Part shown: piece after piece, positions 2,714 through 18,688 of the stretch
Position numbering within the stretch: position 1 is the first letter of the stretch
Layout: the number at the start of each line of letters is the position of its first letter
Source of the DNA: Candidatus Bathyarchaeota archaeon
GTDB taxonomy: Archaea > Thermoproteota > Bathyarchaeia > Bathyarchaeales > Bathyarchaeaceae
Assembly (NCBI GenBank): GCA_026014605.1
Contig: JAOZIC010000003.1
Coordinates: 1 to 28,972 of the forward strand
DNA: 28,972 nucleotides
Direction: 5' to 3'
The notes under the pieces: generated by a model
Databases searched by the model: none
What the model was told of the DNA's origin: nothing
Seen by the model: the letters and a program-made list of their open reading frames with translations, nothing else
Position numbers and translations under genes: made by a program

Positions 2714-4144
2714 CTACATTTCAGGTTTTGTTTTTCTTAGGCTTATGAAGACCCCCACAAGAACACAGGCAGCAACTGCAACAACTACAGCAGCCGCGTA
2801 CAATGGAACATTTTGGTTGGCGTCTATTTGGAAGCTAACAGTCTTAGATGACAGCATGTTGCCTGCGGTGTCCTTGGCGTAGACGGTTATGTTGTGGACA
2901 CCGTCAGATAAACCGGACAAGGTTTTTTGCACATCGAACTCTTTCATGTTTTTTGTGTCAAGGCGGTAGGCAGTCCAAGTTAAGGTTTTGTTTGAACTGA
3001 AAGTTAACGTGACTTCGTTTGTTGTGTAGGTGCAGTTTTCTGGAGACACAACTACAACAGAAGCGGTTATGTCTGAGCCCAAAACAAAAGGGTACATCAG
3101 GGGATAGGGGTCGGTAAAGTTTGCATGCATAACGTAAGGTGTGTCGCCTATGCAGTTGCCGTTAGTGTCGATGCCGTTGTAGCTGCTCCAGTAGTTGCCT
3201 TGGAAGCTGTTGTCAAAAACGTTGGAGCTTGCATTATAGACCATGTGTAGGTTTTGGGTGTTGTTCACAAAGTTGTTGTTGTAAAAACGGTTGTCTGCAA
3301 CTGTTTGGCTGGAGCCTGAAGACCCAAAAGAAATGCCTATTGGAAAGTTTGTGACAAGATTTTCATAGAAAACATTGTGGCAACCTTTGACAAGTTTGAT
3401 TCCACTTTGAGACCTGCCTGTAATGTTGTTCCCAAAAACAATGTTGTATGAACCAACTTGGGTTATGGTTATGCTGCCACCGCCGCTAACGCCGTTTTCT
3501 ATGCTGTTTTTTGAGACAAGGTTGTGACAATCATGCAGGGCAATGCTGGTAACGCAGTTTGTGAAATTGTTTTCAGACACTGTAGTGTAGTTGCTGTCTA
3601 TGGTTTTAACGCCAGTTGGACAAGTAATGGTGTTTCTAACAACAACATTGTGCAATGACCCAGAAGCCACGTCTACACCTGCAAAGTCTGTTCCCATTGA
3701 GATTGTGTTACCAACAATTTGATTATAGCACGAAGAACGCAACATCACAGTTCTAAAAGCGCAGTTGGAGATAGTAACGTTGGAAGATGAATTAACATAA
3801 ACTCCGCTCATGTTCAGGTTTTTGATGGTTACATTCTTTTGACCAGTTACCCGCAAATCGTTAAGAACATAAGCATTTTTTAAGGCAAAACCAGCCCCAT
3901 CGACAACTACGTTATCGCATTCAACGAAAAGAACATGCCTAACAAGGTCACCAGTAAAAACGTACACGTTACCGTCTTTTTGAATAGGCACATACGAAGG
4001 CATAACGCTTCCATCAGCCCTAATGTAAACGTCTACAGTTGGAGGTGCAGGAAAATAATTAGCAAACGCCAAATCAAACTGGGAACTGTAACAAACCGCG
4101 GTTAATACGAGAACCAAAACAAGGGTCGATGCGTTTTTCTTCAT
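2714..4144 (-). CDS. Secreted parallel beta-helix (NosD-like) protein with Ig-like domain and C-terminal TM anchor (no PEF motif)
   Basis: Signal peptide, YIRADGSV N-cap, beta-helix repeats, GNYWSSYNG cap, ...LSDGVHNITVYAKDTAGN Ig-like module, TM + RKTK; paralog of aa 1-470 of 171..2681. Confidence 0.88.
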   Translation of the reverse strand: MKKNASTLVLVLVLTAVCYSSQFDLAFANYFPAPPTVDVYIRADGSVMPSYVPIQKDGNVYVFTGDLVRHVLFVECDNVVVDGAGFALKNAYVLNDLRVTGQKNVTIKNLNMSGVYVNSSSNVTISNCAFRTVMLRSSCYNQIVGNTISMGTDFAGVDVASGSLHNVVVRNTITCPTGVKTIDSNYTTVSENNFTNCVTSIALHDCHNLVSKNSIENGVSGGGSITITQVGSYNIVFGNNITGRSQSGIKLVKGCHNVFYENLVTNFPIGISFGSSGSSQTVADNRFYNNNFVNNTQNLHMVYNASSNVFDNSFQGNYWSSYNGIDTNGNCIGDTPYVMHANFTDPYPLMYPFVLGSDITASVVVVSPENCTYTTNEVTLTFSSNKTLTWTAYRLDTKNMKEFDVQKTLSGLSDGVHNITVYAKDTAGNMLSSKTVSFQIDANQNVPLYAAAVVVAVAACVLVGVFISLRKTKPEM

Positions 4145-4180: not shown

Positions 4181-4247
4181 GCATAAAACAGTTTTTGTAA
4201 AGGTTTCTTGACCAACAACTGATACATTTTAGTCAAAGTTTCTTGAC
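4181..4247 (-). promoter_or_regulatory. Promoter of 2714..4144 with two GTCAA-N6-TTGAC dyads upstream of BRE/TATA
   Basis: Dyads at 4232-4247 (GTCAAAGTTTCTTGAC, exact) and 4197-4212 (GTAAAGGTTTCTTGAC, 1 mismatch); on the minus strand followed directly by AAAAACTG-TTTTATGC, 36 nt before ATG. Confidence 0.7.
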
Positions 4248-4359
4248 AAAACAAACACGCAATAGCTATACGCAAAACGTTGTTGTTACTATGGTTTGAT
4301 GGGTATCTATAAATCATGAGTCTCCAAATATGTTGTCAACAGAACTGTGATGAGGTGGT

Positions 4360-4647
4360 TTGTTGAAGCTTCTGCTTGACGAAATGTTTGCGGGTTTGAA
4401 AGAATATTTTGAGATTTTAGGCTGGGAAGTAGTAACTGCTCAAGAGGCGGGTTTGCGTGGAGTAAAAGACCGCGCAGTTGTAGAATACGCAATAAAAAAC
4501 AATTTACTACTGGTAACCGAAGACCAAAAACCTGCAGAACTTGCAGAACTTAAAGGCGCTAAACATATTCTGATTTCTAGTGCATTGATTGCCAAAATTG
4601 CAGATGAACAGATAAAAGAAAAGTACCCCGACGTAACTCAGCAGTAA
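4360..4647 (+). CDS. DUF5615/Mut7-C-like PIN-domain protein (putative RNase)
   Basis: KLLLDEM...D37...LVTED acidic pattern in a 95-aa protein; GAGGTGG RBS at 4352-4358 (start TTG 4360 or 4363). Confidence 0.75.
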   Translation: MLKLLLDEMFAGLKEYFEILGWEVVTAQEAGLRGVKDRAVVEYAIKNNLLLVTEDQKPAELAELKGAKHILISSALIAKIADEQIKEKYPDVTQQ

Positions 4648-4703
4648 AGCATTAATCGTAAATCAACAAACATTGCAACCGCCCTCAAAGGTGTAGAACT
4701 ATT

Positions 4704-5318
4704 ATGGAAACAAAAACCAAGGTTTCCAAAGATTTTCCAAAAGGCAAAGTCGCGTACTTTGTAACAACTAATATTCACAAGTTTTTGGAAGCACACAACG
4801 TTCTGTCAGAATACAAAATAGCCACAGCCAAACTCAAAGTAGAAGCAACCGAAATACAGGACGACAGCCTAGAAAACATCGCCAAATTCAGCGCCCACGA
4901 CGCAGTCAAAAACAGCGGGTTACCCATTTTTGTTGGCGATGCGGGACTGTTTGTTGAGGCTTTGAACGGTTTTCCGGGTCCTTACTCCGCGTTTGTTTAC
5001 AGAACTGTTGGTCCGCAGGGAATACTGGATTTGATGCAGAACAAAACCAACCGAAACGCGTATTTTCAAACTGTAATCGCTTACTGTGAGCCCAACGGGG
5101 AGCCAAAGACCTTCTGCGGAAAGGTAGAGGGCACAATTTGCATGGAGCAGAAGGGTGATTTGGGTTTTGGGTATGACCCGATTTTTGTGCCTAACCGTGG
5201 TGATGGCAGAACCTTTGCCCAGATGTCTACGGATGAGAAAAATGTGTATTCTCACCGTGCTGAGGCTCTTCGTAAGTTTGCTGAATGGTATTCGGGTGTT
5301 GGCAAACGAATATTTTAA
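4704..5318 (+). CDS. rdgB: RdgB/HAM1 non-canonical purine NTP pyrophosphatase (XTP/dITP diphosphatase)
   Basis: FVTTNIHK, DAGLFVEALNGFPGPYS, GFGYDPIF and SHR motifs. Confidence 0.95.
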   Translation: METKTKVSKDFPKGKVAYFVTTNIHKFLEAHNVLSEYKIATAKLKVEATEIQDDSLENIAKFSAHDAVKNSGLPIFVGDAGLFVEALNGFPGPYSAFVYRTVGPQGILDLMQNKTNRNAYFQTVIAYCEPNGEPKTFCGKVEGTICMEQKGDLGFGYDPIFVPNRGDGRTFAQMSTDEKNVYSHRAEALRKFAEWYSGVGKRIF

Positions 5319-5368
5319 ATACCCGCATTCCCTCCGCCTGTAGGGAAGCTTTCGGAGAATAAAGAAAC

Positions 5369-5809
5369 ATGCCGAAACAAGAAAAGGGAATATCTCATCA
5401 AACTCGTCCAGTTACTAAGCGACCACCAGCATGGTGTAGATACACAGCAGAAGAAGTGGAAGCCCTAATCATGAAACTGTCAAAAGAGGGATATCCCCCA
5501 AGTATGATTGGAATAATTCTTCGTGATCAACATGGTATTCCGTTGACCACACCTGTCACTGGAAAATCTGTAACCGCAGTTCTTAAAGAACGAGGAGTAG
5601 TCTCCTCTTACCCAGAAGACCTAGAAAACCTGCTAAGAAAAGCAGCACGCCTACACGTTCACCAAGACAAAAACAAAGCAGACCTACACAACAAACGCGC
5701 ACTGCAGATGGTAGAAGCAAAAATCTACAAACTCTCAAGGTACTACAAACGCGAAGGCGTACTTCCAAAAGACTGGAAATACTCACCAAAAGCGATTTCG
5801 CTATTCTAA
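5369..5809 (+). CDS. rps15: 30S ribosomal protein uS15 (archaeal S15/S13e type)
   Basis: SMIGIILRDQHGIP, PEDLENLLRKA, H..DLHNKRALQMVEAKI.KL.RYYK, LPKDWKY. Confidence 0.97.
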   Translation: MPKQEKGISHQTRPVTKRPPAWCRYTAEEVEALIMKLSKEGYPPSMIGIILRDQHGIPLTTPVTGKSVTAVLKERGVVSSYPEDLENLLRKAARLHVHQDKNKADLHNKRALQMVEAKIYKLSRYYKREGVLPKDWKYSPKAISLF

Positions 5810-5810
5810 G

Positions 5811-5836
5811 TTTTTTACCTCTTTTTTCTTTTCTTT
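5811..5836 (+). terminator. Oligo-T terminator after rps15
   Basis: TTTTTTACCTCTTTTTTCTTTTCTTT immediately after the stop codon. Confidence 0.55.
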
Positions 5837-5858
5837 ACTGTCCGATTACTGTAAACTA

Positions 5859-5871
5859 GAAAGTTTTAATA
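5859..5871 (+). promoter_or_regulatory. BRE/TATA promoter for the DHH-pcc1 unit
   Basis: GAAAG-TTTTAATA in the rps15-DHH intergenic region. Confidence 0.5.
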
Positions 5872-5968
5872 TACGCTTTTTCGTCTGACCTTAGTCTAGA
5901 CTGCACTTTCTTCAGTGCCGCAAAAAGTGCTGTTGATTTGCATTATTTAAAATGAAACGTGAAAACCA

Positions 5969-7423
5969 ATGTCTGTAACCAAAAACCAGCTTGTGGGTCT
6001 AACAAAAGATGCACAAAAAGCAGCGCAAGTTATTCGTGAGCACATCAACAAAGGCAACGTTATCCACGTTTCTACCCACGTAGACGCCGACGGCATATCC
6101 GCAGGAGGCATAATGGGAACTGCTCTTTTGCGTGCGGGAGCAAAGTTTCGTTTACGGCTTGAACGTTGGATGGACGAAAAAGTAGCAGACAGAATCGCCG
6201 AAGAAAACGCTGCTTTAACCATTTTTACAGACATGGGAAGCGGTTACCTTGACATACTGGGTGAACGCCTGAAAAGTGACGTAGTAATCTTGGACCACCA
6301 CCAACCCGTAACCGACCAAGTTCCCTCAAACTTTGTCCAAGTTAACCCACACATCCACGGAATCGACGGAACCCGCGAAATTAGCGGCTCGGGAGTTTCA
6401 TATTTTGCGGCAAAAGCGTTAAACGAAAATAACATCGACTTGGCGTGTCTGGCTATTGTGGGTGCATTGGGTGATTTGCAGGACAAAAACAAGGAACGTA
6501 AACTGGGCGGCGCAAACAAACCAATCGTAGAAGACGCCGTCAAATCAGGGGGATTAAAGGTGGAAACTGACCTGCTGTTTTTTGGGCGCGAAACACGTCC
6601 AATTCATCAGGCTTTGGCACGCACAACAAACCCGTTTATCCCAGAAATAAGCGGAGAAGAAGACAAAAGCCTAGCATTTCTGGTAAATCTGGGCATCAAA
6701 CCAAAAGACGGTGACAAATGGCGAGCCCTACGCGACCTGTCAGGTGACGAAAAAAAGAAGCTATTGTCCGCGATTGCTGACCACCTAGTTTCTAAGGGCA
6801 TGGCTGGTGATGTTGCGTTTGATTTGGTTGGCGAAGTCTACACCCTAACCAAGGAAGAGCCTTGGACGCCTCTTCGCAGCGCCAGAGAGTTCTCTGTTTT
6901 ATTAAACGCCACTGGACGTATGGATAAAGCAGGTTTAGGCGCCGCAATTTGCATGGGTGACCGCAAGAAATGTCTTGAACAAGCAACCAATGTGATTTCG
7001 GATTATCGGCGCACGATTACAAAGTATCTTCGCTGGATCACAGAAAAACCTGGACGACTAGAGGAACTGGAAAACATCTACGTTGTCAGGGGCGACGGCT
7101 TTATCGACGAGAAGGTTCTCAGCCCAGTTTGCACGATTTTGTCAACAACTCTCACACAGTTAGGAAAACCAATCATTGCATACGCCACGATTTCGGGTGA
7201 AGACCAAGTCAAAATTTCGTCCAGAGGCTCAGAGCCGCTGATTCAGAAGGGCTTGAACTTGGGTGACATCATGTTGTTTGCGTCTGAGAAACATTCTGGC
7301 AGGGGAGGGGGACACGATGTTGCTGCTGGGGCACAGATACCGATTAAAGAAGTGGATTCATTCATTAAGCTAGTTGACGGACTGGTTAAACGGCAGTTGG
7401 AGGGTGAAAAGATTGGAAGCTGA
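5969..7423 (+). CDS. DHH/DHHA1 phosphoesterase, archaeal RecJ/Cdc45 (GAN-like) nuclease
   Basis: HVDADG, FTDMGSG, LDHH, GALGD and GGGHDVAAG motifs; conserved position between rps15 and pcc1. Confidence 0.9.
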   Translation: MSVTKNQLVGLTKDAQKAAQVIREHINKGNVIHVSTHVDADGISAGGIMGTALLRAGAKFRLRLERWMDEKVADRIAEENAALTIFTDMGSGYLDILGERLKSDVVILDHHQPVTDQVPSNFVQVNPHIHGIDGTREISGSGVSYFAAKALNENNIDLACLAIVGALGDLQDKNKERKLGGANKPIVEDAVKSGGLKVETDLLFFGRETRPIHQALARTTNPFIPEISGEEDKSLAFLVNLGIKPKDGDKWRALRDLSGDEKKKLLSAIADHLVSKGMAGDVAFDLVGEVYTLTKEEPWTPLRSAREFSVLLNATGRMDKAGLGAAICMGDRKKCLEQATNVISDYRRTITKYLRWITEKPGRLEELENIYVVRGDGFIDEKVLSPVCTILSTTLTQLGKPIIAYATISGEDQVKISSRGSEPLIQKGLNLGDIMLFASEKHSGRGGGHDVAAGAQIPIKEVDSFIKLVDGLVKRQLEGEKIGS

Positions 7424-7655
7424 GATACGTCTATGTTACAACAGCGAAAAAGAGGCACAAGCAGTTACAGAAGCAGTTTCACCCGATAACGTTGAAGTCC
7501 CCGAGGGACTAGTTGTAGAAACAAAACAAAACGGCAGCGAAGTCTACACCGTAGTGGTTTGTGACAAAAAGTTGGGCACGTTGATTGCTACTTTGGACGA
7601 TTTGTTGGCGTGTGTTTCGGTTGCAGAGAAAAGTTTCACCGTGGCTCAAACATAA
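7413..7655 (+). CDS. pcc1: KEOPS complex subunit Pcc1
   Basis: ~80 aa; A.AV.EAVSPDN and L.TLIATLDDLL.C pattern; GGAGGGTG RBS before TTG 7413; follows DHH gene as in many archaea. Confidence 0.85.
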   Translation: MEAEIRLCYNSEKEAQAVTEAVSPDNVEVPEGLVVETKQNGSEVYTVVVCDKKLGTLIATLDDLLACVSVAEKSFTVAQT

Positions 7656-7670
7656 AGTCCAGTGTTTTTG

Positions 7671-7685
7671 GAAAAAATTTTAATG
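7671..7685 (+). promoter_or_regulatory. BRE/TATA promoter of 7717..8811 (no dyad operator)
   Basis: GAAAAAA-TTTTAATG, 31 nt before ATG. Confidence 0.5.
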
Positions 7686-7716
7686 CTTCCTGTTTTAAGG
7701 GTAGTTTGATTGCAAA

Positions 7717-8811
7717 ATGAGTTCAAAATCAAAAATTGTTGCTACTTTAGTGGTTTGCTGTTTGTTTCTTTGTTACTGTCAAATTGGAACAGTAAAAGCA
7801 GTTGACCCAACGGTCTTTATCCAAGCTGACGGAAGCATAGAAGGAACAGATAACATAACCAAAAACGGTGACGTTTACATTTTCAAGGGAGATGTTACTG
7901 GGTCACTTTTTGTTGCTAAAAGCAACATAATAATCGACGGCGCAGGCTATACCCTTCAGGGAAGCAATACTGAAAACTCTAAGGGAATTTACAGCGATTA
8001 CAAAGACAATGTCAGAATAAGAAATCTTGTAGTCAAAGACTTTGATTACGGAATTTGCTTGATGTACGCTACCAACTTCAACATAACCGCAAACACGGTA
8101 ACCTCTGAGCGTTCAGGCGGCGAACCATGGGCAGAATATGGAATAATATTGCATAGCTCATCAAACTGCACAATTTCAGGAAACGACATCAAAAACAGCG
8201 CATGCGGCATAGCGGTTCAGAACTCTAACGATAACTCAATTTCCGAAAACTGGGCAACAGGTAACGGACGTGGCATCGAGTTAATTGGTTCACAGGGCAA
8301 CTTGGTTTCAGGTAACTATGCTGCAGAAAACGATGACGGGATAGTGGTTGAAAACCAAAACAACAGGGTTGTAGAAAACACAATCACAAACAACAACGAT
8401 GCAGGAATCTACATGTTCAGTGCAACCCTTAACGAAATCACCGGAAATGATGTAACAAATAACGAGCGGGGAATGCACATTACTTTTTGTACCCAAAACA
8501 GTATTTTTGGCAACAACTTTGCTGATAACACATTGCAAATCGACACTGATGCATCAGACAGCATCTGGGATGTTGACCAACAAGGCAACTATTGGGGCGA
8601 CTACACAGGCTCAGATAGCAACAGCGACGGCATAGGTGATACCGCATACACCATATCGGAAAACAACCAAGACAACTACCCGTTAATGGCTTCAGTTGAT
8701 GTAGAGGAAATCCCAGAGTTCGGTAGTTTCGCAGTTTTGATGGGCGCAGTAACGTTGGTTGCGGCTATTTTGGCTGTCTACAAACGAAAACTAAGTCATG
8801 CAAACGTTTAG
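7717..8811 (+). CDS. Secreted parallel beta-helix (NosD-like) protein with PEF-CTERM anchor
   Basis: Signal peptide ending VKA; FIQADGS N-cap; Asn-ladder repeats; GNYWGDYTGSDSNSDGIGD; IPEFGS-TM-KRK. Confidence 0.9.
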   Translation: MSSKSKIVATLVVCCLFLCYCQIGTVKAVDPTVFIQADGSIEGTDNITKNGDVYIFKGDVTGSLFVAKSNIIIDGAGYTLQGSNTENSKGIYSDYKDNVRIRNLVVKDFDYGICLMYATNFNITANTVTSERSGGEPWAEYGIILHSSSNCTISGNDIKNSACGIAVQNSNDNSISENWATGNGRGIELIGSQGNLVSGNYAAENDDGIVVENQNNRVVENTITNNNDAGIYMFSATLNEITGNDVTNNERGMHITFCTQNSIFGNNFADNTLQIDTDASDSIWDVDQQGNYWGDYTGSDSNSDGIGDTAYTISENNQDNYPLMASVDVEEIPEFGSFAVLMGAVTLVAAILAVYKRKLSHANV

Positions 8812-8886
8812 TCAAAATTTATTGACTAACTTTTTTCCAAATTTTATCGATTTGGTCAAAGTTTCTTGATAAAAACGTTTTTTACA
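8810..8886 (+). repeat. 77-bp intergenic direct repeat, copy 1 (dyad + T-tract + dyad + BRE/TATA)
   Basis: 68/77 identical to 10706..10782 without gaps; dyads at 8811-8826 (exact) and 8855-8870 (TTGAT), 44 bp apart. Confidence 0.9.
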
Positions 8887-8923
8887 AAACTTTTCCTGTA
8901 ATATACGCGTTGGGAATACCTGT

Positions 8924-10699
8924 ATGCACTGTTATCTTCCGCTTAGACGGTCGTTTTCCACGTTCTTGGCATGTTTGTTAATAGCAACTCTTGGTCTGGT
9001 TTTCGTCAACATTGTTTGCGCGAACATGATGCCTACACCGGTGCCAACACCCTCGTATATAATTAAAGCTGACGGAACAGTTGAGCCAGAAACATCGTTA
9101 ATCCAAAAAGATGGAAACGTCTACACACTAACTGGCGACATTTCAGGTTACACCATTGCTGTTGAAGCAAACGGCATAATAGTTGACGGCGGAGGCTACA
9201 AACTCATAGGAAACGGTAATCTTGCGGGGGTTTTTGTCCAACAGCACACAGTTACTATAAGAAACATGAAAATCAGCAACTACAAATACGGCATTTTGTT
9301 CACATGGTTGTACGGATTGGGAAAACAGGACAACCACAATATTGTTTCAGACAATGTTCTGACAAACAACACGATTGGTCTTGCAATCAAAGATTACTCA
9401 GACGGTTCAGTTATCTCTAGGAATGTTATGGAAAACAACGATTATGGCATTGTTCTGGGCGACAGCAGCAACAGTGTGCTCAGAAACAACCAGATGACCA
9501 ACAACAGGTACAACTTTTTTGTTTCCACAACCACGGTTGCAAGTGCATGCAACGATGTGGATACTTCGAATACGGTTGACGGCAAACCAATCGTTTACTG
9601 GGTTAACCAGCATAACAAGGTGGTTCCTTCAGATGCGGGGTATATTGGTTTAGTTAACTGTAGTAATATCACAGTCAAGGATTTTGAATTGGTTAACAAC
9701 GGTCAGGCTATTTTTTTGGCGGGAGTAAAGGATTCAACCATAACTCAAAATAGTATATCAAATAACCAGAACGGGTTGTGGTTAGCTGAATCATCAAACA
9801 ACACCATCTCTGAGAACAGTTTTACAGACAACACGTATGACACGATTTTTGTTGTTTCATCAACAGACAACAAAATTGTTTCAAACACAATAACAAACAA
9901 CGGACAGCAAGGCACACCAATAGCTCAGGTGCTGGGCAGTATTGGACGTGGAGCAGTTCGTATCTCAAGAGGTTCAAACAACAACGTTTCAAAAAACACC
10001 ATAACCAATAACGGCGAAGGCATCAACATCGACAACTCAATAGGCACGATTGTTGATTCAAACACAATAACAAACAACAACGGAAGCGCAGTGCACCTGT
10101 TTGATTCCTCTCAGGTCAACATAACTCGGAACTTGATGCAAGAAAATAATGGGTGCGGCGTCAAAATCTGGAACTCTAACACCAATTACGTCCACTATAA
10201 CATTATAGAAAAAAACAGCAACGGCATTTCTGTTGACGGCTCACCTGACAACAAAATCACATACAACACCTCAAATGAAAACCTTGAGTGGGGAATACAA
10301 ATTGAAAGCGACACACCCAACGATGTTTTAGCGTCCCGAAACAACGTTATACACCACAACAACTTCGTGGGCAACAAAGCATCTGGGTTAGAGGTGTCTA
10401 TTCCAGGAATCTGGTGGACACACGGATGGATTGACGGATTAGGCAACGTTTGGGATGACGGCTCAGAGGGCAACTACTGGGGCGACTATCAGACAAGATA
10501 CCCAAACGCCAAAAACAGTTCATTAACCACATGGAACACGGAATACGAAATCAACGCAAATAACACAGACCATTTTCCGTTGACCGCACCAGTTGAAGTG
10601 GACCATATTCCAGAATTTGGTTCCTTGGTTGCTTTGGCTGTTGCAGTTGCATTGGTTGCTTTTGTTTTGGCGTTCTATAAACAAAAACTAAGTGTGTGA
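8924..10699 (+). CDS. Secreted parallel beta-helix (NosD-like) protein with PEF-CTERM anchor
   Basis: Signal peptide; IIKADGTV N-cap; internal NDVDTSNTVDGKPIVY module; GNYWGDY cap; IPEFGS-TM-KQK. Confidence 0.9.
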   Translation: MHCYLPLRRSFSTFLACLLIATLGLVFVNIVCANMMPTPVPTPSYIIKADGTVEPETSLIQKDGNVYTLTGDISGYTIAVEANGIIVDGGGYKLIGNGNLAGVFVQQHTVTIRNMKISNYKYGILFTWLYGLGKQDNHNIVSDNVLTNNTIGLAIKDYSDGSVISRNVMENNDYGIVLGDSSNSVLRNNQMTNNRYNFFVSTTTVASACNDVDTSNTVDGKPIVYWVNQHNKVVPSDAGYIGLVNCSNITVKDFELVNNGQAIFLAGVKDSTITQNSISNNQNGLWLAESSNNTISENSFTDNTYDTIFVVSSTDNKIVSNTITNNGQQGTPIAQVLGSIGRGAVRISRGSNNNVSKNTITNNGEGINIDNSIGTIVDSNTITNNNGSAVHLFDSSQVNITRNLMQENNGCGVKIWNSNTNYVHYNIIEKNSNGISVDGSPDNKITYNTSNENLEWGIQIESDTPNDVLASRNNVIHHNNFVGNKASGLEVSIPGIWWTHGWIDGLGNVWDDGSEGNYWGDYQTRYPNAKNSSLTTWNTEYEINANNTDHFPLTAPVEVDHIPEFGSLVALAVAVALVAFVLAFYKQKLSV

Positions 10700-10705
10700 A
10701 AGTTC

Positions 10706-10782
10706 AGTCAAGTTTTGTTGACTAGCTTTTTTCCAGTTTTTATCGTTTTGGTCAAAGTTTCTTGATAAAAACGCTTTTTAGA
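10706..10782 (+). repeat. 77-bp intergenic direct repeat, copy 2
   Basis: Dyads at 10707-10722 (exact) and 10751-10766 (TTGAT), 44 bp apart; then AAAAACGC-TTTTTAGA. Confidence 0.9.
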
Positions 10783-10819
10783 TATTTTTTGTTAGTAAAT
10801 GAATTGTTGTGCATATATG

Positions 10820-12652
10820 ATGAAAAGAATCCTGCCGCTTGTTCTTTTGTTCATTCTTTGTTTTGGTGTTACAGCGTTCCCAAGTGTAACAGTAAAAGCT
10901 GAACCTAACACCCTTATTGTACCCGACAACTATTCCACAATTCAAGCAGCAATCGATGCTGCCTCTGAAGGAGACACAATCTTTGTGAAAGCGGGTAATT
11001 ATGTTGAAAGCCTAGAAATTGGAAAATCTATATCCATTGTTGGCGAAGATAAGCAAACAACAAAAATCGACGGTGATAATACTGGACCCACCTTTCTTTT
11101 GAGTGGAACTAACATTGAAGTTACTGGTTTTACGGTTGTGAATGATGAACAGTCTACGCTTTCAAAATCTCGTGGTCCATACGCGGGGATACATTTGCTT
11201 AATGCAGATTCTTGTAAAATTTACGGAAATATTGTGCTAAATTGCGGCAAAGGTGTTTGGCTTTACAGTGCACATAATAACCAGATATTTAACAACACGC
11301 TTTCAGGCAATAACTATGGCATTATTCTGGGGTCATCCGAGAACAATGAGTTCACCGATAACGTGGTTTCTGATGGTTGGGGCGGAATTATGGTAGAAGA
11401 TTCAAGCAAGAACACGCTTAGAGGCAACAATATTAGCTGTAACGTTCTGGATTTTGCAGTTTCAAGTTCCGAGCTTGATAATTTTGACAATGATGTTGAT
11501 TTGTCAAACCTAGTTAATGGAAAAAAACTGTATTATGTTACTAACCAAGCAAACCTGTTAATCAATCCAGTTTCTTATTCAGACATTGGAGCTTTAGTTT
11601 TAATCAACTGTTCCGACATTACGTTCCGAAACATGGTGATAAGTAACAATTCTGCGGGGATTCATCTTGTTAATGTTGAAAACTGTGAAATAAAGCATAA
11701 TGTGTTCTCAAAAAATCATGACGGGATTAAAATTCAGTTCTCTCGTGACTTTGCTATTTACAATAACATTATAGAAAAAAGCCATAACTATGGAATTCTC
11801 GCAAGGGATTCAGAAAACATCAGTGTATACCAAAATGATTTAATGTCTAATAAAGAGGGGGGAATAGTTTTTGCGAATTCAAACGGTAACTCAATAGCTG
11901 ATAACTCCCTTACTGGAGGGGGTTCTGAGTACGGCTGGTCTGGCATCAGTTTAGTTTCATGTGACCATACTCAAGTAACAAACAACACTTTGTTGGAAAC
12001 TGATAGTTTTGTTGGTGGGATATCCCTCGAAGATTCTTCGCATAATCTGGTTCAGTTTAACATAGTGTATCCAGGCGCACCAGGGATATATATTACTGGA
12101 GTTTCATTTTACAACCAAATCTTTGGAAACAATTTATCTACAGAACGTGGTAGCACAGGAATTCATGTTTACAGTTCATTTAACGAGTTTGCGGGAAACA
12201 ACATCACAAACTTTTGGACAGGAATTGAATTCTGGAATGCGACACATAATATTTTCACTCGAAACGTTATAGAGAGTAGAACACATTCTGTTGAGTTTTG
12301 GCCAGACACCAGCGATAACACGTTTTTTATGAACAATTTTCAAGGAGAAACATTGGTTTTTGATTATTGGTACGATGCACGGAATATAGTTTCAGTTAAC
12401 GTTTGGGATGATGGCGAAACAGGTAACTATTGGGCAGGTTACAACGGAGAAGACATGAACAGTGACGGAATAGGAGATGTGCCATACAACATAACTTATG
12501 GTAATCAGGATAATTATCCGCTGATGGATCCTGTTGAAAACTTGGAGATACCCGAGTTTGGCTCGTGGGCTATCCCAATGCTGTTGTTCAGTTTGGTTGC
12601 AGTTTTGTTAACTGTCTACAAACGGCGACAACCGGTTAATTCAAGTTGCTGA
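10820..12652 (+). CDS. Secreted parallel beta-helix (pectin-lyase/NosD-like) protein with PEF-CTERM anchor
   Basis: Start moved from 10799 to ATG 10820 (MKRILPLVLL..., 37 nt after TATA, like its sister promoters); IVPDNYSTIQAAIDAA N-cap; GNYWAGYNGEDMNSDGIGD; IPEFGS-TM-KRR. Confidence 0.88.
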   Translation: MKRILPLVLLFILCFGVTAFPSVTVKAEPNTLIVPDNYSTIQAAIDAASEGDTIFVKAGNYVESLEIGKSISIVGEDKQTTKIDGDNTGPTFLLSGTNIEVTGFTVVNDEQSTLSKSRGPYAGIHLLNADSCKIYGNIVLNCGKGVWLYSAHNNQIFNNTLSGNNYGIILGSSENNEFTDNVVSDGWGGIMVEDSSKNTLRGNNISCNVLDFAVSSSELDNFDNDVDLSNLVNGKKLYYVTNQANLLINPVSYSDIGALVLINCSDITFRNMVISNNSAGIHLVNVENCEIKHNVFSKNHDGIKIQFSRDFAIYNNIIEKSHNYGILARDSENISVYQNDLMSNKEGGIVFANSNGNSIADNSLTGGGSEYGWSGISLVSCDHTQVTNNTLLETDSFVGGISLEDSSHNLVQFNIVYPGAPGIYITGVSFYNQIFGNNLSTERGSTGIHVYSSFNEFAGNNITNFWTGIEFWNATHNIFTRNVIESRTHSVEFWPDTSDNTFFMNNFQGETLVFDYWYDARNIVSVNVWDDGETGNYWAGYNGEDMNSDGIGDVPYNITYGNQDNYPLMDPVENLEIPEFGSWAIPMLLFSLVAVLLTVYKRRQPVNSSC

Positions 12653-14144: not shown

Positions 14145-16412
14145 ATGCATAACGAGATGAAAGCCGCTGTAACCGACCAATCACCCCAAAAAAGTTACGA
14201 CGAAAACCAAATAACCCGAATACTATGCGTCGACGATGAACAAGATTTTCTTGGCGGCACAAAAACAATTTTGGAACTAGAGCAGTCATTTCACGTAGAT
14301 ACGGTTTTGTCGGTTAAGGAAGCTCTGCAAAAAATGGCGTCTGAAGTCTTTGATGTTATTGTTTCGGATTATTTGATGCCCGGAAAAAACGGTTTAGAAT
14401 TTTTAAAAACCTTAAGAGAAAACGGTAACCAAATCCCATTTATTTTGTTCACTGGAAAAGGCAGAGAAGAAGTTGCAGTCAAGGCATTGAATCTTGGTGC
14501 TGATAGATACTTTAACAAATTTGGGAACCCTGAAACAGTTTACGGTGAGCTTGTTTATGGTATACATCAAGCTGTTGCTCAAAGAAGGGCGGAAAAAAGG
14601 ATATGGGACCGCGAAGAGCGGTTGCGGGCGATTATTGCTTCGTCTCCGGATTCGATGATTGTTATTAACCTTCAGGGAAATGTTACAGATTGTAATTTAG
14701 AGACGTTAAAACTGCTAGAGTTTTCTAAAAAGGACATAATTGGCAAACATTATCTAACGTTGGTAGCTCAAGAGCATCACCAACAACTTCACGAAGTAAC
14801 TAAAGAGTTATTCAAAAATGGGTTTGTGAGTAACATAGAGTGTTCTTTAGTGAAAAAAAATGGTTCTAAGATTCCAGTAGAGTATTCTGCAAATCTTCTC
14901 AGAGACGCATACGGCAATATTGCTGGCGGTGTGAGTTTGGCAAGAGACATCACCGAACACAAAAAGGCTGAAGAAGCACTGAAAAATTCTGAAGAAAAAT
15001 TCAGGAATCTTGCAGACCAATCTCCTAATATAATTTTCATCAACATAGACCGCAACATATTGTATGTAAACAAGAAATACGAAGAAGTCCTTGGCTACAC
15101 ACTAGATGAGTTGTCTTCTGATAAGTTAGACATAACTAACATAATGGCACCTGAAGATGTTGCTAGCATAAAGTCACATTTTTCTAAACACCGTAACGGA
15201 GAAGAGGCTCCGCCATTAGAGTGTTCGCTTATAACAAAAAAAGGAAAAAAAATTGACGTAATACTTACGACGAAACTTATCAAATACCATGAGCAAGACG
15301 CAGTAATCGGAACCATACATGACATTACCAAAGAAAAAAAGGTAAAAAAGCAGTTGCGGGAGCAGCAAGAACTGCTTGAATTGGTGACAGAAAACGTTGG
15401 TGCTGGAATTGCAATGATTTCAAGGGATTTTCAGATATTGTGGATGAACGACGTATTAATGAAATCTTCTAAAGCAAAAACTGGAAAACCTTGTTATTCC
15501 ACATTAGGGCAACAAAAAAGTGTCTGCCCCGATTGTCCAGTAAAGGAAGTTTTTGAAACTGAAAAAAAGCTGGTCACACAAGAAAAACAATTTGCAATTC
15601 GCGGCGAAAGTTTTGTGGAAATTACTGCTACGCCCATCAGAGACAAAAAAGGAAACGTCACAGCAGCGTTAGAACTTGTTATCCCAATAACTAAACGAAA
15701 GAAAGCCGAAGACAAATTGAAAGACACATTAAATGAACTAGAAACTGCGAACCAAAAGTTGGGTGTTCTTGGAAAACTAACCCGCCACGATATAAAAAAC
15801 AAGCTTTCAACGATACTAAACAATACTTACCTTGCTAGAAAGCAACTCGCAAATAATGACGAAGCTCTAACGCATCTGGTGGACATAGAATTAACTGTTG
15901 ACCAGATAGAGAAAATTTTTGAGTTTTCAAGGCTCTACGAACAACTAGGCACTGAAAAGCTGTCATACATCAAAATAAACAAAAAAATTGAAGAAGCAAT
16001 TTTGTTGCAGTCATCTTTAGAAGATATAAAAATATTGAACAAATGTAACGGCTTAACAGTGAAAGCAGATTCGTTACTAAGGCAGGTCTTTTACAACTTA
16101 ATTGAAAACTCGCTAAAACACGGACAAACAGTCAACAAAATAGAAATCTACTACAAAGAACGAAAAAACGACCTCAAACTAATCTATAAAGACAATGGCG
16201 TTGGCATACCAGAACACGCAAAAGAGTTAATCTTCAAAGAAGGCTATGGCTCGGGCACAGGATACGGACTTCACTTGATAAGAAAAATCTGTGAAGGATA
16301 CGGATGGAGTATCACCGAAAAGGGTACGGTTGGAAAAGGAACAAAATTTGTTATCGTCATTCCAAAAATGGGCAAAAATGGAAAACCTAATTACATCGTC
16401 AAAAAAGAGTGA
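14145..16412 (+). CDS. Cytoplasmic hybrid sensor kinase REC-PAS-PAS-PAS-HisKA-HATPase
   Basis: ILCVDDE/IVSDYLMP/FTGK receiver; three PAS/PAC repeats (..RDITEHKKAE); RHDIKN H-box; NLIENS, DNGVGI and GTGYGL boxes; no TM segment. Confidence 0.92.
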   Translation: MHNEMKAAVTDQSPQKSYDENQITRILCVDDEQDFLGGTKTILELEQSFHVDTVLSVKEALQKMASEVFDVIVSDYLMPGKNGLEFLKTLRENGNQIPFILFTGKGREEVAVKALNLGADRYFNKFGNPETVYGELVYGIHQAVAQRRAEKRIWDREERLRAIIASSPDSMIVINLQGNVTDCNLETLKLLEFSKKDIIGKHYLTLVAQEHHQQLHEVTKELFKNGFVSNIECSLVKKNGSKIPVEYSANLLRDAYGNIAGGVSLARDITEHKKAEEALKNSEEKFRNLADQSPNIIFINIDRNILYVNKKYEEVLGYTLDELSSDKLDITNIMAPEDVASIKSHFSKHRNGEEAPPLECSLITKKGKKIDVILTTKLIKYHEQDAVIGTIHDITKEKKVKKQLREQQELLELVTENVGAGIAMISRDFQILWMNDVLMKSSKAKTGKPCYSTLGQQKSVCPDCPVKEVFETEKKLVTQEKQFAIRGESFVEITATPIRDKKGNVTAALELVIPITKRKKAEDKLKDTLNELETANQKLGVLGKLTRHDIKNKLSTILNNTYLARKQLANNDEALTHLVDIELTVDQIEKIFEFSRLYEQLGTEKLSYIKINKKIEEAILLQSSLEDIKILNKCNGLTVKADSLLRQVFYNLIENSLKHGQTVNKIEIYYKERKNDLKLIYKDNGVGIPEHAKELIFKEGYGSGTGYGLHLIRKICEGYGWSITEKGTVGKGTKFVIVIPKMGKNGKPNYIVKKE

Positions 16413-18088: not shown

Positions 18089-18310
18089 ATTTTGTTCCTC
18101 ATAACGTGTTAGAGTTGTGTTTGGTAAGTGCAACTTTTTGGGGGTTTATGAGAATATTGTTTTTTGGGTGTGTTAAAATGTTTCGTAGTTCAGTTCAGTT
18201 TTGTGGTTAGCCTATCTTTTATAATGTTAGTCGCAAACTTGTAAAAACCAATACCCTTTTTATGCTTTAAAGTGTCTATATATACTGAATACTTGAAGGA
18301 CAAGACTTCC

Positions 18311-18688
18311 ATGCCAAGACGTAACGAACTAGAGCATAAAGCATTGCATGTTATCGCCAACAACGGAAACGACGGCGTGCTTCAATCTGAACTATGGCGA
18401 AAAATGGACGCCACTAGCAGAGAAGGTTCAAGAATCGCCCTGAAACTAGAAACTAAGGGTTTGATTCGCCGCGAAAAAGAACTTTTTGAAGGAAGGTGGA
18501 CCTACAGACTGTTTCCAAAACGAAAACCTGCATCTCTTAATTCTATAATTAATTCTCCATGTTTGATGTGCCCAAATGACTCGAAATGTGGACCTTGGAG
18601 CCAAATTACTCCTAACGAGTGTCCTAGATTGACTGCGTGGATTTTAGGCATTGAAGAACCAGAAGTGGAATTGTCTGGTGAAGACTAG
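18311..18688 (+). CDS. tfeB: Transcription factor E beta subunit (RPC34/39-like winged helix + 4Fe-4S domain)
   Basis: GVLQSELW..M..TSREGSRI..KLE.KGLI.RE wHTH followed by PCLMC-x5-C-x10-C..L.AW; start moved to ATG 18311. Confidence 0.8.
   Translation: MPRRNELEHKALHVIANNGNDGVLQSELWRKMDATSREGSRIALKLETKGLIRREKELFEGRWTYRLFPKRKPASLNSIINSPCLMCPNDSKCGPWSQITPNECPRLTAWILGIEEPEVELSGED

Follow-up and report, generated by a model that had tools for sequence, protein, structure and literature searches.

Several archaeal regulators act upstream of the transcription factor B (TFB) recognition element (BRE), recruiting the TATA-binding protein (TBP) or TFB: Ptr2 of Methanocaldococcus jannaschii, which belongs to the Lrp family, TFB-RF1, EarA and TrmBL1/Tgr. 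Ptr2, TFB-RF1 and TrmBL1 are examples of activators placed just upstream of BRE. The nearest described system to the one presented here is that of ArnR and ArnR1 in Sulfolobus, which are membrane-bound helix-turn-helix one-component activators of cell-surface structures (PMC6396743). In the flaB promoter of Sulfolobus acidocaldarius, two ArnR boxes with the sequence TCGAC-N5-GTCGA lie just upstream of BRE and the TATA box, and both are required for binding (PMC6396743, where EarA is also mentioned). Transmembrane transcription regulators are widespread, according to the sections of a survey drawn on here, which do not mention ArsR-type members (PMC10269533). The consensus operator of ArsR is ATCAA-N6-TTGAT (PMC9137774). 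Here we describe paired GTCAA-N6-TTGAC dyads in a stretch of 28,972 nucleotides from a Candidatus Bathyarchaeota archaeon. This stretch, referred to below as the window, is contig JAOZIC010000003.1 (C97) of a 1.63-Mb metagenome-assembled genome (MAG, G000) of Candidatus Bathyarchaeum, which is 79% complete.

A pattern search finds exact GTCAA-N6-TTGAC in the window only at positions 4232, 8811 and 10707. Each of these dyads has a partner with one mismatch (at 4197, 8855 and 10751, respectively), and 35, 44 and 44 bp separate the starts within the three pairs, so that the positions and pairing of the six dyads are those given by a first-pass annotation of this DNA. When up to one mismatch is allowed, the window contains 8 matches, compared with 1.79 expected, and none of 100 shuffled sequences reached 8. 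The two remaining matches with one mismatch, at 16398 and 17129, are found in coding DNA and have a low score with the genome-wide matrix. In gene orientation, each of the three promoter-proximal dyads is joined without any gap to AAAAACNN, followed by a T-rich octamer. The annotation had described such flanks, with an AAAAAC-NN-type block, a poor TATA box and a constrained distance to the start codon, and direct reading bears them out.

The paired dyads are predicted protein-binding sites, fused to the core promoters of about 30–40 genes coding for secreted or surface proteins. They very probably mark an undescribed cell-envelope regulon in Bathyarchaeum, an archaeal genus that is still uncultivated. 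We consider it likely that the six dyads form three copies of a composite promoter-operator module, which heads some 30–40 units of exported or membrane-anchored surface proteins. The module contains a 16-bp near-palindrome, GTCAA-nnTTTC-TTGAC, in either orientation, an 8 nt BRE-like AAAAAnCC and a T-rich TATA-like box.

A genome-wide motif scan, which the annotation had suggested as a check, finds the motif far above control, in a fixed register to BRE and TATA and enriched at surface-protein genes. The MAG has 39 exact matches to the arms, compared with about 2 expected from its base composition. With a matrix, about 80 sites score at least 16 bits, compared with 6 in the reversed genome, and the 54 sites with at least 21 bits are nearly all intergenic and form 32 clusters. 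The complete genome of Bathyarchaeum tardum M17C-01 (CP122380.1) was used as a second, independent test set. It contains 63 sites with at least 18 bits, compared with 3 in the control; 56 of these 63 are intergenic, in a genome with about 14% of its sequence outside called open reading frames. The consensus of the motif is TTrGTCAAnnTTTCTTGACaA. The spacer is thus not the free N6 that had been supposed: it is asymmetric (nnTTTC), and the element is a near-palindrome of 16–22 nt.

One 16-mer in each gene-oriented cluster has a constant register: the 16-mer, AAAAAnCC and TTTT. When 71 promoters from the two genomes are combined, the consensus is TTT.GTCAAg.ttTCTTGAC-AAAAA.cc-TTTT. The distance from the end of the 16-mer to the T-rich box is 8 nt in the 71 promoters, where the dyad overlaps neither the TATA-like box nor the expected start, and start codons are mostly found 35–49 nt past the proximal dyad. 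The asymmetric spacer is in the sense orientation with respect to the gene in 47 cases and flipped in 24. The promoter-side arm is frequently TTGAT or TTTAC. The arrangement first proposed for three promoters, in which predicted regulator sites directly adjoin a BRE-like A-tract followed by a T-rich TATA-like box, is therefore kept throughout the genome and across species.

Most promoters have a second dyad 24/25, 34/35 or 44/45 bp upstream. The 86 distinct pairs of sites have spacings of 24–25 (8 pairs), 32–35 (44), 42–46 (33) and 55 (1), with nothing between these classes, and both sites have the same orientation in 77 pairs. The spacings differ by whole helical turns, as predicted for the cooperative binding of two protein units to one face of DNA.

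The block next to the dyads differs from the general core promoter. In B. tardum, AAAAANCCTTTT has 34 copies, 17 of which abut a dyad; when only copies with a start codon 15–60 nt downstream are considered, 13 of 15 do so. General promoters have TATATA or TAAATA about 50 nt before the start, and a Shine-Dalgarno-like GGAGG or GGTGA near -13. In the regulon promoters of both genomes, the start codon is found just 27–41 nt after the beginning of the TATA-like box. This short distance, unlike that of ordinary genes, suggests that the regulon messenger RNAs (mRNAs) are leaderless or nearly so.

A core block peculiar to dyad promoters might also be expected if the whole element formed an extended core promoter for a specialised paralogue of TFB or TBP, with no separate regulator. 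In fact, B. tardum has five TFB genes, compared with two or three in its relatives. Nevertheless, we find this explanation very improbable. The number of TFB genes does not track the motif: motif-bearing G075 has two and motif-free G038 also has two. A palindrome used in two orientations, with a helically phased second copy, is ill-suited to a basal factor.

The first of the three modules in the window is on the minus strand. Its distal dyad (4232–4247) is an exact GTCAA-N6-TTGAC with 31 bits in the matrix scan, conserved in six species. The proximal dyad (4197–4212), which reads GTCAAGAAACCTTTAC in gene orientation, has the flipped spacer type and a TTTAC arm, and is also conserved in the six-species alignment; this variant is proximal in at least seven other promoters of the MAG. 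Then follow the BRE-like AAAAACTG (4196–4189) and the T-rich TATA-like TTTTATGC (4188–4181), with 36 nt to the ATG at 4144. Two target genes, 2714–4144 (476 amino acids) and 171–2681 (836 amino acids), are separated by 33 nt and probably form one operon. Their products, both of the NosD/beta-helix type, have a signal-like N-terminus and an anchor at the C-terminus.

The other two modules are on the plus strand. The distal dyad at 8811–8826 shares the final base of the stop codon of gene 7717–8811. It is followed by the proximal dyad GTCAAAGTTTCTTGAT (8855–8870), of the sense spacer type, the BRE-like AAAAACGT (8871–8878) and the TATA-like TTTTTACA (8879–8886), with 37 nt to the ATG at 8924. 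The target gene (8924–10699) codes for a NosD/beta-helix protein of 591 amino acids, with a signal-like N-terminus and a C-terminus which contains IPEFGS, a membrane-spanning stretch and a basic tail. The third module has its distal dyad at 10707–10722 and its proximal dyad, with the same sequence as 8855–8870, at 10751–10766; the BRE-like AAAAACGC (10767–10774) and the TATA-like TTTTTAGA (10775–10782) come next. Its target (10799–12652) codes for a NosD/beta-helix protein of 617 amino acids, with a signal-like N-terminus and a PEFGS-type anchor. The first ATG after the 10751 dyad is the one at 10799, merely 16 nt past the box. An ATGATG at 10817–10822, which gives a distance of 34–37 nt, is probably the true start. 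The two distal dyads of the plus strand, 8811 and 10707, have spacers with differences at 3 of 6 positions, in agreement with the annotation.

These two modules are contained in a direct repeat of 92 nt with 85% identity (8803–8894 and 10699–10790), described as a 77-bp block in the annotation, which includes both dyads and the BRE/TATA module. The copies flank gene 8924–10699. Judging from these sequences, the duplication of the promoter either included a surface-protein gene or took place beside one. Such a duplicate is what we would expect if the repeats were left over from a mobile promoter cassette or from a recombination site that had spread together with surface-protein genes; many sites are also found on short contigs. 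On the other hand, orthologous promoters retain just the dyads and the TATA-like box, the sequences beside and between the dyads are not conserved, and the spacings of the pairs differ by whole helical turns. This origin appears most improbable to us. The promoter at 4197/4232, on the opposite strand, is independent of the duplicate.

No dyad precedes the beta-helix genes at 7717 and 23968, as the annotation stated. The protein tails coded at 8700–8811, 10600–10699, 12550–12652 and 171–300 have IPEFGS or IPEFPS, a membrane-spanning stretch and a basic end, and look like PEF-CTERM signals; an NCBIfam scan of these tails gave no such match at E < 0.01.

A gene was considered a target when a site was found at most 130 nt upstream. 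A signal-like hydrophobic N-terminus is present in 29 of the 37 MAG targets and in 323 of the 1560 other genes (odds ratio 13.9, p = 2e-13). The result is practically the same in B. tardum: 28 of 35 targets, compared with 453 of 2071 (odds ratio 14.3, p = 8e-13). In this genome, the odds ratio rises to 22 for proteins with a signal and a C-terminal anchor but no internal membrane segment. Targets without a signal are mostly divergent neighbours of a regulon promoter. One of the genes beside a B. tardum site codes for an anaerobic ribonucleotide reductase fused to a winged helix-turn-helix (wHTH) domain, and was set aside as a bystander. A protein of 740 amino acids that resembles anaerobic ribonucleotide reductase and has an N-terminal DUF7347 winged helix is found at L045:17069-19291 (B. 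tardum 177069–179291) and in contigs C153 and C34 of the MAG; the fusion recurs in most of the genomes searched.

Pfam assigns the NosD/beta-helix family to the window genes and to 7 of the 16 B. tardum targets tested. The remaining targets include a Kelch propeller, a 4Fe-4S membrane protein and several proteins without any family. B. tardum has about 17 NosD genes, of which 8 are direct targets and about 4 are found downstream of targets on the same strand. The enrichment in signals and the presence of several folds indicate that the regulon, broadly taken, is the exported surface proteome, and that it is wider than the selection of beta-helix genes that had been proposed. It covers about 30–40 promoters of exported or anchored proteins, and most B. 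tardum NosD genes are included. The cells of B. tardum have an S-layer and an outer sheath (PMC10477458).

Conservation in related genomes, which the annotation had proposed as a check, is observed: the element is present throughout the genus, and the orthologous promoter keeps its dyads. When the 4197/4232 region is aligned in six species, the invariant columns are found in the two dyads and in the A-run of the TATA-like box, whereas the sequence diverges in the flanks and between the two dyads. All sampled members of the genus contain the exact 16-mer (18 of 18 in one sample, 9 of 9 in another), with 2–64 copies; controls have 0–1. Among the genomes sampled outside the genus, only genera g25, g37 and g43 of one family, f9, contain it, and there the sites also precede signal-bearing NosD-like genes. 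The 16-mer is absent from the sister genera in Bathyarchaeum's own family, and about 150 genomes of other Bathyarchaeia families gave three single matches only.

The window contains no site-bearing gene for a candidate regulator, in agreement with the annotation, which placed the regulator elsewhere. A small gene at 18272–18688 gives a weak winged-helix match of the MarR_2 type, but is not preceded by a dyad. The MAG has about 50 wHTH genes, and none of them has a convincing upstream site. The annotation had suggested that ArsR-like genes might carry the motif in their own promoter; this does not hold for the MAG, but related species do have membrane-tethered ArsR-type genes of this kind. In B. 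tardum, a canonical promoter with a single site precedes a gene for a protein of 360 amino acids, in which an ArsR-type wHTH is followed by a membrane helix, an outside domain and, at the C-terminus, a further membrane helix. Genes of this type, a paralogue of 350–400 amino acids, have a site in the canonical register in 9 of 10 species. A second paralogue, of 436 amino acids, is found in nearly all members of the genus; the MAG gene is at 1907–3217 of contig C35, outside the window. Strong sites are found directly upstream of this gene in three genomes (G014, G005 and G001). In family f9, homologous regulator genes are divergent from canonical regulon promoters and adjoin them. Another paralogue of the candidate regulators, in B. 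tardum (L066:18549-19244, genome positions 598549–599244), combines a DUF7347 winged helix with an RDD membrane domain.

Pfam describes the tethered regulators as DUF7347 with HTH_5 or HTH_20. The structure model of the 436-amino acid protein (mean predicted local distance difference test score, pLDDT, 82.6) has an ArsR/SmtB topology, with a winged helix ordered as a1-a2-a3-aR-b1-b2-a5. The wHTH corresponds to residues 6–85, followed by a long helix (100–153) with a hydrophobic start and basic residues before it. The modelled N-terminal domain superposes on CzrA, SmtB, HlyU and BigR with template modelling (TM) scores of 0.65–0.79 over about 90 residues, and the modelled ectodomain, a tandem PepSY, matches YpeB/PepSY. 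The nearest NCBIfam models are the metalloregulator and SdpR autorepressor subfamilies, with a score of 32.5 bits, below the cut-off of 55. There is no Cys in residues 1–95 and no His in the last wHTH helix, so that the usual ArsR metal sites cannot form. The likeness to ArsR noted in the annotation is upheld in two respects: the operator that it named is published, as cited above, and the best candidate binder has an ArsR/SmtB fold.

We give about even chances to the view that the binder belongs to this family of membrane-tethered ArsR/SmtB-fold one-component regulators. To follow its distribution, we compared 93 genomes of the order, defining a close wHTH homologue by E ≤ 1e-29 and a motif-bearing genome by two or more exact motifs. 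Of the 20 motif-bearing genomes, 19 have a close homologue, as do 8 of the other 73; all eight belong to family f9. In a second, out-of-sample batch of 12 genomes, a homologue is present in 5 of 6 motif-rich genomes and absent in 2 of 5 motif-free ones.

The binder might instead be another regulator, a soluble one, the tethered proteins being merely members of the envelope regulon; we regard this as a possible alternative, although it falls short of an even chance. Several observations favour it and weigh against a tethered binder. The candidates are membrane proteins, like other targets, and might simply be regulon members themselves. The gene for the 436-amino acid protein has no upstream site in the MAG. 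The co-occurrence of regulator and motif reflects only about two lineages. Genome G231 has ten copies of the motif and no detectable DUF7347 homologue at 96% completeness. Conversely, the homologue is found in genera g34 and g47, where the exact motif is absent, and the one g34 sequence examined, from G065, has the same recognition helix; a comparison of recognition helices did not separate motif-bearing from motif-free genomes. The remaining wHTH proteins of the MAG, about 50, offer many other candidates. On the other hand, none of their genes has a convincing site, the phyletic match of the tethered family with the motif is close, and the TCAA-N6-TTGA core equals the published ArsR consensus (PMC9137774).

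Two other candidates were rejected. An Lrp/AsnC pair is found beside a regulon promoter in contig C113 of the MAG, but it has no close orthologue in B. tardum, where the Lrp genes are at least 5 kb from any site. In contig C57, a 17-bit site precedes a wHTH gene of 271 amino acids by 190 nt and was judged to be due to chance; the locus has a different palindrome of its own. Two copies of GGATGG-TTAA-CCATCC followed by AAAGATTWATAAAA (around 2255–2300 and 2435–2480) are found there, between a chelatase-like gene and the wHTH gene. From its sequence, this palindrome looks like a separate operator.

The strength of the core promoters was compared with a model derived from 51 tRNA promoters of the two genomes (aRAAAgC-TTAAATa, at about -44). 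A general TATA box model, obtained by expectation-maximization from all upstream regions, drifted to T-run/A-run composition and was discarded in favour of the tRNA model. At the fixed register, the BRE half of the regulon promoters scores 3.5 bits, compared with 4.7 for tRNA promoters and -6.2 for random sequences. The corresponding values for the TATA half are -0.1, 4.1 and -3.8 bits. A good BRE and a poor TATA fit a factor which helps TBP. Ptr2 helps TBP in this way at a poor core promoter. The description of these promoters as weak, made in the annotation, holds only in part: at the fixed register the TATA half differs from the tRNA consensus, but the BRE half does match it, and a broader comparison with other genes, given below, shows no difference.

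The annotation also assumed that an activator switches these genes on. Its regulator sites are supported as predictions, and the choice between activation and repression comes only from their geometry; a search for RNA sequencing runs that contain this DNA found none. We think activation rather probable, by analogy with other archaeal promoters: the dyads are upstream of BRE, their register is exact to the base, and their core block is a private one. Two points speak against it. When the best BRE/TATA score in 85 nt is compared between dyad promoters and other genes, the difference is not significant, but with so weak a model this test has no power. ArsR/SmtB proteins are classically repressors, and a protein which abuts BRE could equally block TFB. 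Under repression, the proximal dimer, stabilised by the distal one, would keep TFB and TBP from BRE and TATA until a signal releases the surface genes. The fold of the candidate, its nearest subfamilies, the gapless contact between the dyad and the BRE-like block, and dyad promoters that were not found to be weaker are all compatible with a repressor. Nevertheless, we find repression rather unlikely: neither the TATA-like box nor the expected start is ever overlapped by a site, the register is base-exact in about 70 promoters, the block AAAAAnCCTTTT, with a TATA half unlike the tRNA consensus, is largely limited to dyad promoters, and archaeal regulators just upstream of BRE are mostly activators.

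If activation is accepted, the module might work as follows. Each dyad would be bound by a dimer of a winged-helix regulator, and two dimers would cooperate on a single face of the helix. The proximal dimer would contact the basal factors at a core promoter with a poor TATA half and turn the genes on, giving mRNAs which may be leaderless or nearly so. The binder may have a cytoplasmic N-terminal ArsR/SmtB wHTH, joined by one membrane helix and a stalk to an extracytoplasmic domain. A tethered factor of this kind would make the synthesis of the surface proteome depend on the condition of the envelope. The complete proposal is that membrane-tethered ArsR/SmtB-fold regulators with outside PepSY-type sensors directly activate most of the exported surface proteome, through phased dyads followed by BRE and a weak TATA, with leaderless mRNAs. 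We put it forward tentatively, as less than an even bet. If true, it would describe a "secretome regulon" which couples envelope state to surface-protein synthesis in very abundant sediment archaea.

A full-text literature search, combining the motif with archaeal terms, gave nothing relevant; papers on Bathyarchaeum do not treat regulation, and we have found none on this element or on any regulator of the genus. Bathyarchaeia, for which there is no genetic system, rank with the most abundant archaea in anoxic sediments. The element supplies a defined operator, about 30–40 target promoters and a short list of candidate regulators, and would reveal the way in which these cells control the S-layer, the sheath and the surface proteins. 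In addition, it would provide an example of a membrane-bound regulator with an ArsR/SmtB fold that acts beside BRE and TATA. In any case, the module is a ready annotation marker for surface-protein genes in these genomes.

The element may finally be compared with the systems mentioned at the beginning. Like those of ArnR, its paired inverted repeats are upstream of BRE and TATA, its targets are surface proteins and its candidate binder is membrane-bound. The sequence of the boxes and the spacing of their arms are different, and the predicted regulon includes tens of promoters. The architecture of the proteins is also different: ArnR has cytoplasmic HAMP and sensor domains and two C-terminal membrane helices, while the candidate combines an ArsR/SmtB wHTH with a single membrane helix and a PepSY domain on the outside. 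Its cytoplasmic N-terminal DNA-binding domain, single membrane pass and outside sensing domain are similar to those of ToxR and CadC; ToxR-type proteins, however, have an OmpR-like winged helix instead of an ArsR/SmtB-fold wHTH. With the Ptr2 type of regulator, the element shares palindromic sites just upstream of BRE and TATA, often two of them, but the protein families and site sequences are others, and the Lrp lead in the MAG is unsupported. The likeness to ArsR/SmtB operators includes an identical TCAA-N6-TTGA core and the fold of the candidate's DNA-binding domain. The candidate differs from ArsR/SmtB proteins in that it lacks the metal-site residues and falls below the NCBIfam subfamily cut-off. 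ArsR/SmtB proteins are bacterial repressors, released by a ligand, whose operator overlaps the promoter, while the Bathyarchaeum site is found upstream of BRE.

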